DNA of 64,000 nt from Candidatus Magasanikiibacteriota bacterium. Its GTDB lineage: Bacteria; Patescibacteriota; Patescibacteriia; Magasanikbacterales; UBA922. A program made the position numbers and the translations under genes. Positions 1-30,560 of this stretch are shown here, one piece after another. The notes below the pieces were generated by a model. That model was not told the DNA's origin. It searched no databases and saw nothing but the letters and a program-made list of their open reading frames with translations. The stretch lies in NCBI GenBank assembly GCA_052033375.1, contig JBPOJQ010000006.1, positions 24,791-88,790 of the forward strand. The letters run 5' to 3'. Numbering within the stretch: position 1 is the first letter of the stretch; each line of letters begins with the position of its first letter.

Positions 1-1028
1 ATGACAAATGCATAGCATGATGCAAGTGTACAGGTGCGTGCACGTGCGATATAGCCAGATTTTGAAGCTGCGACTGGAGTACCTTGGGCACTTCGGATAT
101 CAATCGCAGGATGTTCATAGATATAGCGGAATGGATAGCTTTTGTCGTGAAAATACGCCGTCACATAGCGACTCTGTGTGGGCCATGAAAGAAGTGTCTC
201 GTCATCGCTCAGATCAGCAAATTTTTGACTCTCGGCTAATTTTTTCCGGACCTGTTGTTCAACAGCCACAATTTCATTCTCCACCTGTTTATATTGGGAT
301 TTGAGACCTGAAACCAGGGATTTATAGGTCATCTCAGATGATTGCGTTTGTGCGAGTAGTGTGCCTTTGAATTTTGATTGTTCATCCAAATCTCGCTTAC
401 GATTATCCAATCGTTCTTTCAATTCCTCGTAAGTCTTTTTTCGCTCCTCAGTTTCAGTCTTCTTCTGTTCTAATTCTTCTTTAGCAATACGAAGAGCCTT
501 GGCACTCTGTCCGAGATCCTGCTCTAGACTCTTTAGATATTGAACACGGGTATAGAAATCAGAAAAATTATCATACGCCGCCATGACCTCAATATACTTC
601 TTGTTGTTTTCATAATGGAGTGTGCGCACTAATTCAGCAAGCATCGCACGCTGTTTTTCAATTGCAGCTTCTTTGGTAGTAATACCAATCGCAAGCTCTT
701 CAATTTGAAGGGTTAGTGTTTCAAGTTTTGCCTGAGTAAGATCGATATCGAGCTCAATTTGTTTTATTTGATTATCCAAAATTGCCAACTGATTCGAAAG
801 TGATACCGCCTCAGTGCGCTTTTCAGAAATTTTCTTATTATATTCATCAATACTTTTCTGGAGTTGTTCAATCTTACTTTTTCCTTCAGAAATTTTCTTA
901 TTAAGCTCATCTATTTCAACTTGAGTTGCAGCATGTACAGGCTGAATAATCAAAAACTGCCGCATCCCGATCAATGCAGCAAATGACAGTACACAGAAAA
1001 AAATTCTAAAAGATAAATGTGTAATCAT
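1..1028 (-). CDS. M23 family metallopeptidase with long N-terminal coiled coil (EnvC/NlpD-like murein hydrolase activator), partial: C-terminus runs off the 5' window edge
   Basis: Own translation of the minus strand from the ATG at 1028-1026. The protein is MITHLSFRIFF..., with a signal/TM segment, long heptad-like coiled coil, then ...YIYEHPAIDIRSAQGTPVAASKSGYIARA, a typical M23 HxxxD region. It is not in the ORF track because no stop codon lies inside the window. Confidence 0.7.
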   Translation of the reverse strand, partial: MITHLSFRIFFCVLSFAALIGMRQFLIIQPVHAATQVEIDELNKKISEGKSKIEQLQKSIDEYNKKISEKRTEAVSLSNQLAILDNQIKQIELDIDLTQAKLETLTLQIEELAIGITTKEAAIEKQRAMLAELVRTLHYENNKKYIEVMAAYDNFSDFYTRVQYLKSLEQDLGQSAKALRIAKEELEQKKTETEERKKTYEELKERLDNRKRDLDEQSKFKGTLLAQTQSSEMTYKSLVSGLKSQYKQVENEIVAVEQQVRKKLAESQKFADLSDDETLLSWPTQSRYVTAYFHDKSYPFRYIYEHPAIDIRSAQGTPVAASKSGYIARARTCTLASCYAFV

Positions 1029-23994: not shown

Positions 23995-24807
23995 TTAGTC
24001 GAGTCCAATCTCTGTCGCTGCACGCTTATATCCATTAATTCCGAGCTGATTTGACGACTGTAATCCGAATAATTTACTATGCATCTCCCACGCTTTTTCA
24101 GCACCCTGTTCTTTCGCACATTCGAATGCTTCTGCAGCTTTTTGTGCCTGTTGGTGGAATGATAGTGGGAAATGTCGATAGGTAAATCTAATCTTGTCCC
24201 CATATTCTTCAAGCATCTGTTTAATAGCTGGTTCAAATCGGAGACAAAATGGACACTCAAAATCAGAGAATTCAATAATACTCACTTTTGCATCCTCATT
24301 TCCCAACCAGATTGCATCAGGCAATTCGGGCATCGTTACCTTTACAATAGGTAATAATTCTCCAGTATTTTGATCTTTTTGCTTCAAGAAATCAAAAGCA
24401 GAATCCTTTGTCACATCTTTTCCAGCAAGCGCAGCATCAATTACCATTTTCAAAGCATTGTATGGAAAAGCACCGCTCACCAATACACCATTAACAAATG
24501 TCGCAGGAGTACCCTCGACACCAATCGCTGAACCGAGCTGCAAATCAGCCTCGACAACATTTGCAGTCTTTCCAGAATCGAGACATTGACTGAATTCTTC
24601 GGGACCTTCTACATTTCCATTTGCATCAGTCGTGACAGTGGTATTTGTATTCTTAGCCCCCTTCACAGAAGGAGATCCATCACCGAGCATAATACCAAGC
24701 AAGACAAAAAAACCGATCGTACAGAGCACCATAACTCCACCGACAAGCCCAACCACAAACATTTGTTTAGGTGACAGGAGTTCAAACACGCTTTTCTCTT
24801 CATTCAT
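23995..24807 (-). CDS. membrane-anchored DsbA-family thiol:disulfide oxidoreductase
   Basis: N-terminal TM. FSDFECPFCLRFEP gives a CxxC thioredoxin motif. The start is taken at MNEEKS; the ORF extends to 24858. Confidence 0.8.
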   Translation of the reverse strand: MNEEKSVFELLSPKQMFVVGLVGGVMVLCTIGFFVLLGIMLGDGSPSVKGAKNTNTTVTTDANGNVEGPEEFSQCLDSGKTANVVEADLQLGSAIGVEGTPATFVNGVLVSGAFPYNALKMVIDAALAGKDVTKDSAFDFLKQKDQNTGELLPIVKVTMPELPDAIWLGNEDAKVSIIEFSDFECPFCLRFEPAIKQMLEEYGDKIRFTYRHFPLSFHQQAQKAAEAFECAKEQGAEKAWEMHSKLFGLQSSNQLGINGYKRAATEIGLD

Positions 24808-26069: not shown

Positions 26070-27416
26070 CTAGTAATCACTCAATTTATCAATTACCTCA
26101 AAACTCTTAATTTTTTCAATCGCTTTTGCCTCAATCTGACGAATACGTTCACGAGTTACCCCAAATTCCTTACCCACCTCTTCGAGTGTATGCGTGACTC
26201 CGTCTTCGAGACCAAACCGCATTTCCAAGATTTTTTTCTCACGTGGAGAAAGATCCTGAATCGCTTCGCGAATATAGTCTTTCAACAATTCAGAACCCGC
26301 AGCAGCTGACGGACTAATATTTTTTACATCCTCAATAAAGTCTGAGAGTGAGGTATCATCGTCGTCGTCATCACCGACAGAAGTTTCAAGTGATACGGTA
26401 TCTTGTGAAATCTTAATAATATGTTTTACTTTCTCGACGTCTTCGCCCATTTCTGCCGCAATTTCTTCTGGAGTTCCATCACGACCAAGATCTTGAAGCA
26501 ATCGACGTGATACTTGCTGAAGTCGATTAATTGTTTCTACCATGTGGACTGGAATACGGATGGTACGAGAATGATCTGCGAGCGCACGAGTAATCGCCTG
26601 CCTAATCCACCACGTAGCATACGTAGAAAATTTGAATCCCTTCCGATAATCAAATTTTTTAACTGCACGAAAAAGTCCGATATTTCCTTCCTGAATCAAA
26701 TCCAATAACGACAATTGTTTCCCCACAAATTTCTTCGCGATAGAGACCACCAGACGCAAATTCGCTTCAATCATACGTCTTTCTGCTTCTTTGTCACCAC
26801 GTTCTTTGCGTTTTGCCAAAGACATTTCTTCCTCAGCATTGAGCAAATGTACTTTTCCAATTTCACGCAAATACATCTGAATAGAATCTTGTGAAATACT
26901 TCCTAGATCAAAATATGAACCACTCTCTTTATCAGGCTGTTCACCCTGGAATCCCTGAAGCATTTCTCGCTTTTTCTCAACCGTATGATTACCTCCGAGA
27001 AGTCCTTCCTGACCTTCAACCAGAGAAATACTATTTTTATCCATGAGATTCAAAAAATACTCATAGAGATCAAGATAGAGTTCAGCTCGAGGAAACTTCA
27101 ATAGGACTTCTTTTTCAGTAAGAAATCCTCGATTGCGTCCTTTGGTCACGAACTCATGAATCTGATCTGCGGTTGGCGGAAGTACTATTTCCTGTTCAGG
27201 TTTTCGTTTAGGAGCCTGCTGTCGGAAATTACGTACAAATTTTTTCTTTCCCTGCTTTCCTCGATTTTTTCCAAATTGATTCCCGGTTTTTGCCCCGCTT
27301 ACGCGTCGGGATTGGGCTTTAGCACTAGGTGCTGATGGTGCCGCTTTTTTTGAAGCGGTGATAATTCGTTTCTTCGCTTTGAGCGATTGTTTAGTTGTCG
27401 ATGGTTTCTTGGCCAT
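26070..27416 (-). CDS. rpoD: RNA polymerase sigma factor RpoD (sigma70) with Lys/Ala-rich basic N-terminal extension
   Basis: Region 2 ([39 protein letters not shown]). Regions 3 and 4 ([20 protein letters not shown]). Confidence 0.95.
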
Positions 27417-27448: not shown

Positions 27449-29254
27449 TTATTGATATTGTTGTAGCGACCGGAGTAATGACTCGATAGTTGCGCTATCC
27501 CCCCGCATCTCTGCATCTCTGAGAGCATTCTGTATTACACTTCGTTTCTGTTTTATCCACTCTGATCGTATGCGCATTGCTAATGCGATGATCTCCTGCT
27601 CACGAGCTTCTGATGTAAAATCAGAAAACTCCTTCTCTCCCATGAGAAGAAGTACGTCGAGAGGATTTTCAGTGTCAACATGTGTATAACGCTCCCGTAC
27701 ATGTGTAAAATCACATGGTATACGCTGAGTATAGGCTATTTTTACGATTTCGTAAAGGTCTTGATGGAGTGCTGTGGAAAACGCATCAATCGTGAAAAAA
27801 TTCTCAGGTATTTTGAGCACCAATCCGGGCGCAATATATAGAAGAGAAAACAGACGATCAGCCAGCACTGTCAGATGATCTATGGTAGATTTCACCGGGG
27901 CTCCTGTAGGTGAAGAACTACGCGAATGGATGGTCTTCTGTTGTTCCTTGAGAATACGAGCAATGTCCTCGCGCAACACTACCACATCCACCTGAAGTCG
28001 GTGGGATAATGTTGAAAGCCAGTGATCACGTTCTACCGCATATGGTATTCGAGAAATTTCGAGCAATAGCTCATTTGCAATCTTTTGTTTTGTTTTCGGA
28101 TCGTCAAGTGGCATGTCTGCAAATGACCGATCAAAATACCATTGCATAATATCTTTCGCATGCGCAACAGATTCAAACCATACAGACGCATTTTTCTTAA
28201 TACATTCATCTGGATCTTTTCCTGCACCTTCTGGAATCTGAATAACTTTTACATTCATTCCATCTTCAATCAATAAATCAATACCTCGTTTTGCTGCAGC
28301 AATACCCGCAGAATCTGAATCAAAAGCCATATTTACATTCGTGGAATATCGTTTCAATAATGTTATCTGATGTTCGGTCAAAGCAGTACCGCTTGTCGCA
28401 ACCACATTAGTCATCCCCGCCTGATGACAGGCAATTACATCCATCTGGCCTTCGACCATGACAATCAAATCGCGTGCCTTGATTTCACGTTTTGCCTTAT
28501 TCAAACCAAACAAGACCCGCGATTTATCATAGAGTAACGTCTGAGGTGTATTCACATACTTTCCGCCACTATGTTCAGTTTCCACGAGCACACGACCAGT
28601 AAATCCGACTACAGCATCATGCGCATCCCAAATTGGAAACATGATGCGTCCACGAAAACGATCATAGTATCCCCGTCCGCTCCGCTCAGAAGTACCATCT
28701 TTCTTAATTGCAAGCCCACTCGCAATCACATCATCAATTGCATGTCCTTTTTTGAGCAAATACTTGGTGAGAAGATCCCACTGATCCGGAATAAATCCGA
28801 TTTGCCAGGCACTAATAGTCTCATCTTTCAATCCACGATTAACAAGATATTCAAGCGCTGGTCTGGACTGAGGAAGTTTGAGAAGAATGTAATGAAAAAA
28901 TTTTGACGCATCATGATTGATATCTTTCAAACGATTTTTCTGACTAGTCTCAGTGGTATTAATTGTTCGAGATAATACAATACCTGCCTTATCAGCAAGA
29001 AATCGGAGTGCATCCCGAAATTCCATTCCCTCAATTTCTTGAATAAACGTAAACACATCCCCGCCTTTGGCACACCCAAAACAATGCCAGCTCTGTCGCT
29101 CGCGATTTACCATAAACGAAGGAGATTTCTCGTGATGAAACGGACAGAGTCCCTTGTGGTTGACACCTGCCGGCTTCAATGCAACATACTCAGAAATCAA
29201 GTCCACCACATCGACCTTCTCTTTTATACGTGTAATGTCATCGTTCATACTCAT
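27449..29254 (-). CDS. dnaG: DNA primase DnaG
   Basis: CHC2 zinc finger ([11 protein letters not shown]...WHCFGC). Toprim ([14 protein letters not shown]). The start is taken at MSMNDD; the ORF extends to 29380. Confidence 0.9.
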
Positions 29255-29303
29255 TCGAGAGTACCTTATTGTGGATAAACTTTCAAGATGAATAGTGATA
29301 ATA

Positions 29304-29331
29304 TTGACAAAAAATAAAACAATACTATAAT
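29304..29331 (+). promoter_or_regulatory. consensus sigma70 promoter TTGACA-16-TATAAT pointing away from dnaG into a GC-rich non-coding region
   Basis: Seen in the sequence. Confidence 0.5.
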
Positions 29332-29337
29332 TCGTCT

Positions 29338-29447
29338 TTGTGTCTTGGTGTCTAAACTGAGAGGGAAAAAACACGCACATGTAGATGAATGAGGGTACAT
29401 ATGCTTGGCTTGAATGGCGATATCCTGCTTGCAGGATACGCTTTTTT
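29338..29447 (+). ncRNA. candidate about 110-nt small RNA (promoter to intrinsic terminator GCGATATCCTGC-ttgc-GCAGGATACGC + TTTTTT), followed by about 350 bp of further GC-rich hairpin-rich sequence to about 29800
   Basis: Promoter at 29304-29331. Terminator hairpin at 29418-29441 with U-run 29442-29447. No downstream same-strand gene. A 13-bp perfect inverted repeat ATACCAGTTGCAT...ATGCAACTGGTAT + T-run lies near 29730-29800. Confidence 0.3.
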
Positions 29448-29852
29448 CGGCACCATCGTTCTCATGGTTGCGATTCCTGCAGTGCTCATGTGCACTCGCA
29501 ATTACGAGAAACCGAAGACCATCTCAAAGAAGGGACGAAAACCGTAGAGGAGGACTCGGACCAAGGCGAAAAAAAAGCGCGTAAACAACATGCTCGAAAC
29601 CGAGAATGCTCGTGCAGATCTCGATGAGGCAGGCTTCTGACCCCCCCACTACCCCCACAAGAGGAGTAGACCACACAGCTTTCTACGAAGAAGGGTATCC
29701 GCGGGGGAACAACAAAATACCAGTTGCATCCCCCACTGTTGGACCCGAATCATATCGGATCCAGCACAAGGAGAACTATGCAACTGGTATTTTTGTATCA
29801 CGATATTGTGTTGACAGCCAATGTGCCACCCCGGATCAAAAAGTCTCCTGAG

Positions 29853-30560
29853 TTACAATGCGATAAATGGACGAATGACAGTTCCCTTGAATTTCTTTCC
29901 TTGAATTGCCTTTGCAACTTCGCCCAGATCACTCCCGCGTACGATTGAAACAGTCATACCATATGTCTCCGCACTCCTACTCGCGATCGGATCAAATGGA
30001 GAATTTTTTCCCGGTTCCCACACATTCCCGACAATATCTCGACGGTACGTTTTCCAATCAATATTCTCTATTTTTTCCGCGTCAGAAAACTGATTTGGAT
30101 CTTTGGTGTACACATATTCAATATTGGAAATATTTACCAATTCACGTGCGCCGTATGTTCGCGCGAGCAATACTGCATCAGCATCCGTACTGCATCCGGG
30201 CTTCCATCCACAAGCAACAATAATTGATTTTGATGTTTTTACAGGCTTAGTCGGATCAAAAATGACTTCGCCATATGCGTGCTCTCCAAAAAAAAGACGA
30301 ACAAAGTTTGCATTAAGTCGTGTGGTTTCAATTCCAATCAAATCAAGTTGATGATGTTGTTCACCAATCATGGCCCTGAGACCTGCCTGATAGGTGCGAG
30401 CTGTCGTACCACCACCCACCACCAAAATAAATCGAATACCTTTTCTCGCTTCCCTAAGAATCAGGGCTTTGAATTTCTTGAGGAATTCGATATCGAATCC
30501 GGTCGAAGGGATGATAATCGATCCTCCAATGGAGAGAATTTTGGTTTGTCGTTTCGCCAT
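29853..30560 (-). CDS. pyrH: amino-acid kinase family protein, archaeal-type UMP kinase
   Basis: KILSIGGSII ... LVVGGG ... about 235 aa. The short N-terminus is typical of archaeal-type PyrH. Confidence 0.7.
   Translation of the reverse strand: MAKRQTKILSIGGSIIIPSTGFDIEFLKKFKALILREARKGIRFILVVGGGTTARTYQAGLRAMIGEQHHQLDLIGIETTRLNANFVRLFFGEHAYGEVIFDPTKPVKTSKSIIVACGWKPGCSTDADAVLLARTYGARELVNISNIEYVYTKDPNQFSDAEKIENIDWKTYRRDIVGNVWEPGKNSPFDPIASRSAETYGMTVSIVRGSDLGEVAKAIQGKKFKGTVIRPFIAL

Follow-up and report, generated by a model that had tools for sequence, protein, structure and literature searches.

The 64-kb window analysed here (positions 24,791 to 88,790 of contig JBPOJQ010000006.1, assembly GCA_052033375.1) comes from Candidatus Magasanikbacteria, within the candidate phyla radiation (CPR; Patescibacteria). 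It contains a 600-bp spacer between the start of dnaG and the stop codon of a UMP kinase gene. A promoter in this spacer probably drives a lineage-restricted, fast-evolving gene for a small membrane protein, which ends in a conserved hairpin terminator; we put the probability of this reading at roughly 0.72. The promoter, the open reading frame (ORF) and the terminal hairpin are conserved in related genomes, paired positions of the hairpin co-vary, and the substitutions in the ORF are of coding type in one sub-lineage. Conservation of both ends across 12 genomes supports an independent transcription unit diverging from dnaG, hereinafter designated the cassette. The cassette of the window consists of the following elements, where UTR is untranslated region and SD is Shine-Dalgarno sequence.

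29304-29331, + strand: sigma70-type promoter, TTGACA-16-TATAAT, matching the consensus at 12/12 positions and standing back-to-back with the dnaG promoter.
29338-29400, + strand: predicted 5' UTR of about 63 nt, its start placed at about 29338 from the promoter position.
29401-29547, + strand: small ORF of 48 codons, translated as MLGLNGDILLAGYAFFGTIVLMVAIPAVLMCTRNYEKPKTISKKGRKP, closed by TAG at 29545-29547.
29421-29447, + strand: hairpin followed by six U, inside the small ORF and specific to the window; the terminator of a preliminary description of this DNA.
29548-29640, + strand: continuation past the TAG in the frame of 29401, RRTRTKAKKKRVNNMLETENARADLDEAGF, 30 codons ending in …ADLDEAGF, closed by TGA at 29638-29640.
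29641-29713, + strand: first part of the 3' UTR, with C-runs at 29641-29647 and 29652-29656, a hairpin, an invariant G-run at 29703-29707 and an A/C-rich linker.
29714-29797, + strand: long interrupted hairpin, predicted to be a bidirectional terminator; it includes CCCCC at 29730-29734, AAGGAGAA at 29768-29775 and a U-run at 29790-29794.

For comparison, 80 dnaG loci were retrieved. The eight closest (L001-L007 and L068) encode DnaG proteins 71–80% identical to that of the window, and their spacers, 500–1020 bp long, can be aligned with the window spacer. Further cassettes were obtained by protein look-ups (L082-L084, L086 and L089/L090), so that 12 distinct cassettes were compared, namely the window and 11 relatives. 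All DnaG relatives belong to Candidatus Magasanikbacteria or to metagenome-assembled genomes of Patescibacteria. The UMP kinases of the closest relatives are 85–86% identical to that of the window, and none closer was found.

The promoter is the sole perfect match in the 64-kb window, where 0.08 would be expected, and at least one such match occurs in 8 of 100 shuffles. The preliminary description was thus right to name it the best promoter of the window. Hexamers and spacing (TTGAC[AT]-16/17-[TC]A[TC]A[AC]T) are kept in register across the 11 related cassettes, with a weaker −10 element in L086; the loci that conserve the promoter are L001-L007, L068, L082, L084 and L089/L090. The sequence TTGTG right after the −10 element is invariant. 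Judged from the promoter position, the transcript would start at about 29338.

The preliminary description had placed no same-strand gene downstream of this promoter. This has to be revised, as an ORF preceded by an SD begins at 29401 and has homologues in the relatives. Specifically, the SD of the window (GAGGG, 29391-29395) lies 5 nt ahead of the ATG, and an SD-like motif is located 5–9 nt before the ATG in every relative. An SD-preceded ATG ORF of 58–82 codons (58–79 in the 11 relatives) occupies the same place in 12/12 cassettes, and an ORF of such length appears in only 1–6% of shuffles of each sequence. The window product has a hydrophobic N-terminal segment, a candidate membrane helix with a peak 17-residue hydropathy of 2.47, followed by a basic stretch. 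N-terminal peaks of 2.3–3.9 over 17 residues are found in 10/12 members, consistent with a membrane helix. The family has a recognizable architecture: a hydrophobic N-terminal helix, usually basic residues next, a hydrophilic tail and an acidic C-terminus (…DLDxxGF*). The tails read SDLDIGGF in L003, SDLDIAGF in L004, LSDAGF in L001 and DDLEINGF in L090, and other members end in DDTESF, EMDLIDFR or LTDEEDVSQ. The closest homologue of the window protein is that of L090 (MLGFN…TIPAVL…DDLEINGF), which is 76 aa long and uninterrupted.

The pattern of substitutions is that of a coding sequence in one sub-lineage. Compared with L007, L082 and L084, the ORF of L002 has 17/7/29, 17/10/32 and 18/7/28 substitutions at first, second and third codon positions, respectively (p of about 0.001–0.002). 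There are no insertions or deletions over 231 nt at 74–77% identity, and substitutions are most frequent at third and least frequent at second positions. An AlphaFold2 model of the L082 homologue has a helix at residues 2–25, with a predicted local distance difference test score (pLDDT) of about 80, a second helix at residues 31–62 (pLDDT of about 60) and a disordered tail.

Four family members have been called independently by gene callers, and these four are the called members among 5.8 billion proteins. One reason why the small gene is missing from protein databases is over-extension of dnaG: in L089/L090 (2517-2750), automatic calling stretched dnaG to 675 aa, over the divergent promoter and the small ORF region. 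The protein has no described family, with matches only at chance level in Pfam, NCBIfam and PHROGs, and an exhaustive profile search of 1.84 billion representatives returned only the family's own members. Two other ORFs in the region were rejected: an 80-aa ORF (29385-29627) has no homologues, and an 81-aa ORF (29606-29851) likewise has none and its frame is broken by 1-nt insertions or deletions in the hairpin. Acidic tails like that of single-stranded DNA-binding protein were sought elsewhere in the window, with nothing informative found.

In the window copy the frame is interrupted by the in-frame TAG. This genome uses TAG as an ordinary stop codon: it ends 13/47 long ORFs in the window, and recoding of TAG was rejected for this reason. 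The stretch that follows is the counterpart of the acidic C-terminal tail conserved in the uninterrupted homologues. Because the frame past the TAG is still open and the ADLDEAGF tail is kept, any inactivation would be very recent. The stop codon may stem from a nonsense mutation of very recent origin, from polymorphism among strains or from a mistake in the assembly. The window copy may thus be a truncated 48-aa form, a recent pseudogene or the product of an assembly error.

The hairpin inside the ORF was the basis of the preliminary description, in which a strong intrinsic terminator ends a small RNA (sRNA) of about 110 nt. A hairpin with a U-run is indeed present: TATCCTG-CTTG-CAGGATA at 29421-29438 is followed by CGCTTTTTTC, with an extended-stem free energy of −15.4 kcal/mol (z = −3.4), and it would make a plausible intrinsic terminator in this genome. 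The word strong overstates the case, as the stem has 7 pairs, 3 of them G-C, and ranks in the middle of 24 terminator-like matches in 20 kb. Shuffles give 16.4 ± 4.7 such matches, so that the frequency is near that of chance, and many of the matches lie inside genes. The hairpin encodes GDILLAGYAFFG of the hydrophobic N-terminal segment. A scan by the same criteria found no hairpin with a U-run in the 5' UTR or ORF of 11/11 relatives, whose sequence differs or is gapped there and whose frame is open and SD-preceded in every case. Conservation over 29338-29447 is among the lowest in the spacer. Because the hairpin lies in the ORF, is mid-ranked and is absent from the 11 relatives, a sRNA ending at 29447 is not supported. 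The suggested scan of Rfam 15 was run and gave nothing in the window, at the gathering threshold or at E ≤ 10, and matches only at chance level in L002 and L003. A non-coding sRNA with its 3' end at this hairpin (about 110 nt), conditionally extended by read-through into the GC-rich tail, is therefore very improbable, even though the window ORF is in any case broken by the TAG. The further proposal of an RNA gene with an internal attenuator or read-through element is kept in part, namely the separate promoter-to-terminator unit and its structured 3' part; the RNA gene and the internal attenuator are not. The 3' arm of the hairpin (29430-29441) can also pair with a downstream partner copy (29470-29481), TGCAGGATACGC with GCGATTCCTGCA, at 83% complementarity, an alternative pairing seen in this genome only.

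The preliminary description had also pointed to a GC- and C-tract-rich tail that ends in a perfect inverted repeat and a T-run, and both are confirmed. The G+C content is 0.49–0.52 across 29400-29800, compared with 0.35–0.45 in the flanks, and the C-tracts are those at 29641-29647 and 29652-29656. The arms of the repeat (29714-29729 and 29778-29793) are 48 nt apart and are followed by TTTTT. The long hairpin folds with a free energy of −38 kcal/mol (z = −8.2), with UUUUU directly after the stem. Together with the G-run it forms the best-conserved block of the spacer (29703-29797), and the covariance model scores the window at 90.8 bits over 29703-29794.

Covariation identifies the hairpin as a selected RNA structure. 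In the 12-sequence alignment, RNAalifold predicts one hairpin of 27 pairs, with 95.7% of cells paired and compensatory changes at 9 pairs. These values of pairing and compensation were reached by 0/500 column shuffles, and sliding the partner column reduces pairing to about 40%. In the outer stem, for example, CAGUUG/CAACUG of some genomes is replaced by CGCUCG/CGAGCG in others. Several pairs are G-U on the + strand and would be A-C mismatches on the minus strand; because these pairs fit the + strand only, it is the + strand RNA that is under selection. The hairpin has a mean pairwise identity of 83%, compared with 78% for the whole of pyrH (the UMP kinase gene) and 53% for pyrH third codon positions, and the small ORF of the window is 53–66% identical to those of the relatives. 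Flanked by an A-run (5') and a U-run (3'), the hairpin is probably a bidirectional terminator, serving the convergent UMP kinase gene of the minus strand as well; the stop codon of that gene is only 0–57 nt away.

The 3' UTR upstream of the hairpin is more variable. A closing helix between a C-run and the G-run is predicted in the window and 10/11 relatives; L086 has no upstream C-run partner. Two small hairpins between the stop codon and the long hairpin are common to 7 relatives, with one compensatory pair only, and the corresponding domain of the window differs from this two-hairpin form. After the stop codon the order is C-run, G-run, C-run, GGAG, and GGG, CCC and GGAG are invariant in the alignment. 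The G-run can pair with the C-run that follows the stop codon in all cassettes but that of L086 (−8 to −13 kcal/mol) or, about equally well, with the C-run of the hairpin at 29730-29734 (−8.4 to −16 kcal/mol). The bases that flank these runs co-vary in a few differing lineages (U-GGGG-A/U-CCCC-A, G-GGGG-A/U-CCCC-C and A-GGGG-U/A-CCCC-U). Cognate duplexes average −11.5 kcal/mol, compared with −10.35 ± 0.42 kcal/mol for permuted ones, and 85/10,000 permutations are as good (p of about 0.009, with kinship ignored). These pairings are compatible with a pseudoknot or a two-state terminator. No same-strand gene lies right downstream: the 3' end of pyrH follows on the opposite strand, and the next same-strand gene, cysS, lies 1.4 kb off, past two genes of the opposite strand.

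Read from the sequences, the start site, transcription, translation, membrane topology and termination would fit together as follows. A strong constitutive-type promoter, divergent from that of dnaG, would make a monocistronic messenger RNA (mRNA) of about 460 nt, with its ends near 29338 and 29795. The mRNA would encode a small bitopic membrane protein with an N-terminal helix, basic residues, a disordered or helical tail and an acidic, usually Phe-terminal end, and the positive-inside rule would place the acidic tail in the cytoplasm. The structured 3' UTR would end in the long hairpin and U-run, which would stop both the small-gene mRNA and the convergent UMP kinase transcript. In the window itself the TAG would cut the protein to 48 residues, giving a truncated variant or an early pseudogene, and the hairpin with six U in the ORF would be a chance or recent feature.

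Several observations weigh against a small membrane-protein gene. The RNA hairpin is conserved far better than the ORF, and the family proteins are just 19–25% identical to that of the window. The coding-type pattern is significant in one sub-lineage only, the comparisons of L005 with L006 and of L007 with L082 not being significant. L005/L006 have no convincing membrane helix (hydropathy 1.42), many genome annotations left the small gene uncalled, and the window's own copy has a premature TAG. This last point raises the possibility, which we regard as doubtful but not slight, that the cassette of the window is a decaying pseudogene, in which the TAG and the intragenic hairpin reflect neutral decay and only the terminator function for pyrH is needed. 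That the stop at codon 49 is a genuine one in this genome, that the closest homologue (L090) is intact, that the 3' UTR domain of the window departs from the form shared by 7 relatives and that the whole cassette has been lost in other lineages are all consistent with decay. However, the promoter is still a perfect consensus and the frame past the TAG is open with its ADLDEAGF end, and an assembly error or a functional 48-aa form would account for the same stop codon.

With the hairpin so much more strongly conserved than the ORF, the main function may lie in the RNA. In that case the 3' UTR would be the main product, as a bistable or pseudoknotted attenuator-like terminator or as a 3'-UTR-derived sRNA, and the ORF would serve mainly as a carrier or to sense translation; a ribosome that has reached the stop codon, for example, would mask the first C-run and leave the G-run free to pair with the C-run of the hairpin. 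The identity of the hairpin, which exceeds that of pyrH, its third positions and the ORF, the invariant GGG, CCC and GGAG, the near-equal pairings of the G-run and the co-varying flanks with their better-than-permuted duplexes all point in this direction. Nevertheless, there is no same-strand gene downstream to regulate, the critical bases are mostly invariant, so that covariation of the alternative helix rests on very few events, the upstream two-hairpin domain has a single compensatory pair, and the element, present in single copy, is limited to one small clade. We consider this account unlikely. Lower still is the chance of a type I toxin-like membrane peptide whose structured mRNA limits translation and whose antisense partner is the 3' end of the pyrH transcript. 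A small product with a hydrophobic N-terminus and charged tail, a strong promoter, a dispensable cassette (lost in L008, L085 and L087) and a predicted pairing of the 5' end of the 5' UTR with the SD/AUG region in several relatives would suit such a toxin, and convergent transcripts that share a bidirectional terminator are the layout of par/Fst (PMC7472228). Yet the spacer alignment has no conserved minus-strand antitoxin promoter, and with only 0–57 nt between the hairpin and the pyrH stop the 3' end of pyrH is the sole possible antisense partner. Direct repeats are absent, toxin families give no match, and inheritance of the cassette is at one fixed site of the chromosome. On the product itself the comparison is mixed: type I toxins are usually shorter than 60 aa, and an N-terminal hydrophobic helix is present in 10/12 members, but most products are 58–79 aa with a conserved hydrophilic C-terminal motif, unlike known type I toxins (the truncated window form is 48 aa). 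A small membrane-protein gene with a conserved hairpin terminator thus remains the preferred reading.

A broader and, taken as a whole, rather unlikely extension of this reading treats 29703-29797 (about 95 nt: the G-run, the A/C-rich linker, the hairpin with invariant CCCC and AAGGAGAA, and the U-run) as a new RNA motif of one Magasanikbacteria clade. As part of it, the motif might form a pseudoknot or switch, in which the G-run pairs with the stop-codon C-run or with the terminator C-run. It might couple translation to termination, or to read-through antisense to pyrH, or yield a stable 3'-UTR-derived RNA. The acidic …DLDxxGF tail might in turn hold a replication protein at the membrane or titrate it there, next to a dnaG promoter that contains a DnaA box.

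The cassette has a narrow distribution. One copy of the hairpin core occurs in the window and one in each positive locus. A metagenome collection scanned with the core pattern gave one match, spurious on inspection, and 18 pattern matches on viral contigs gave 0 confirmed by the covariance model. Over 97 sources, covariance model R1 found, besides the window and L089, only generic matches resembling long terminators. The best of these, in L040, has 37 bits, about equal to the score of the reverse complement of the true element. L040 is a more distant Magasanikbacterium (DnaG 53% identical), and the match marks an analogous but unrelated cassette at a different site (377-760, minus strand), beside the dihydrouridine synthase gene dus. 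The promoter of this cassette contains TTGACA, and an SD precedes a 61-aa ORF with two hydrophobic stretches; then come GGGGG, an A-run, a long hairpin whose internal strands are C-rich and GGGAG, and U8.

Close relatives without the whole cassette (L008, L085 and L087) indicate that it is dispensable. In L008 (3892-4000), L085 (2209-2313) and L087 (1288-1396), and also in L088, the spacer between the UMP kinase gene and dnaG is about 105 nt and contains only a short simple bidirectional terminator hairpin and the dnaG promoter. In a neighbour-joining tree of UMP kinase, the cassette is present in the basal L086 and in both subclades, and the cassette-less L008, L087 and L085 stand beside L005/L006. 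This single-gene tree tentatively suggests vertical inheritance with one or two losses. A mobile element or integron attC site was dropped as an explanation, given the lack of flanking repeats, the fixed site and a phylogeny that fits vertical descent. More distant Magasanikbacteria have unrelated genes or nothing upstream of dnaG.

The genes around the spacer, all on the minus strand, are the following.

26070-27416, minus strand: rpoD (Pfam scan).
27449-29254, minus strand: dnaG (Pfam scan).
29853-30560, minus strand: amino-acid-kinase-family gene, pyrH-like (Pfam scan), with database relatives named UMP kinase.

The promoter of dnaG itself consists of CTTGAAA (29287-29281), a 17-nt spacer and TACTCT (29263-29258) on the minus strand and is conserved in every relative, with or without the cassette. 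The conserved dnaG start is the second ATG (29248, MNDD…), which is only 9–10 nt past the −10 element and has no SD, suggesting that the dnaG-rpoD mRNA is leaderless or near-leaderless. A perfect DnaA box, TTATCCACA, is located within the spacer of the dnaG promoter (29270-29278, minus strand), about 25 bp from the −35 element of the divergent small-gene promoter. The box is perfect in L002 and L007, and matches at 8/9 positions in L003, L004, L006, L068 and L090; the cassette-less L008, L085 and L087 lack it. Over the window as a whole, DnaA boxes show no enrichment (26, compared with 20 ± 4.9). In L091 (1181-2020), the most divergent relative of the group (UMP kinase 70% identical), a gene for a TIR-domain protein follows the UMP kinase gene in place of dnaG.

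Among known systems, the cassette is closest to lineage-specific genes for small single-pass membrane proteins. These are likewise monocistronic, with a sigma70-type promoter, an SD, an ORF of fewer than 80 codons, one N-terminal helix and a terminator of hairpin and U-run, and they also evolve fast and are often missed by gene callers. The family of the window differs in being unmatched in Pfam, NCBIfam and PHROGs, in its 3' UTR of about 150 nt and in a terminal hairpin that is better conserved than the protein. With bidirectional intrinsic terminators it shares an A-run, a G+C-containing stem and a U-run between the small gene and pyrH, and cassette-less relatives hold a simple bidirectional hairpin at the corresponding place. 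In contrast to such terminators, the stem-loop of the window is about 80 nt long, with three helical segments and invariant internal loops (CCCC, AAGGAGAA and UCGGAU), its identity exceeds that of the neighbouring essential gene, and its G-U pairs indicate selection on the + strand RNA only.

The succession of C-run, G-run, C-run and GGAG right after the stop codon of a short ORF resembles trp-type leader-peptide attenuators with their alternative pairings (1:2 / 2:3 / 3:4), as the G-run would have two competing partners and the last helix would be the terminator. Unlike these leaders, the family ORF has 58–79 codons, shows no excess of a regulatory amino acid and has no same-strand gene after its terminator, and the alternative pairing is a prediction. 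The type I loci par/Fst, where convergent transcripts share a bidirectional intrinsic terminator, also have a structured mRNA for a small hydrophobic peptide (PMC7472228). The locus of the window differs from par/Fst in lacking a dedicated antitoxin promoter, an antitoxin sRNA and direct repeats, in its longer family product with a conserved acidic C-terminal motif, and in its fixed, vertically inherited chromosomal site.

The cassette is thus most likely an unannotated, lineage-specific small membrane-protein gene, whose unusual aspect is the strongly constrained 3' hairpin with its G-run. For annotation, a small-protein gene accounts for a seemingly empty 600-bp spacer beside dnaG-rpoD in a CPR bacterium. 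The comparison also indicates that a textbook-looking promoter and terminator, read as an sRNA, can arise as an artefact when only one genome is considered. The 3' hairpin is constrained more strongly than either the small protein or the neighbouring essential gene, and to our knowledge few regulatory RNAs have been described in CPR bacteria. If the hairpin and G-run are a true switch or a stable RNA, the cassette would be a compact, testable example; otherwise it would be an ordinary lineage-specific accessory gene.

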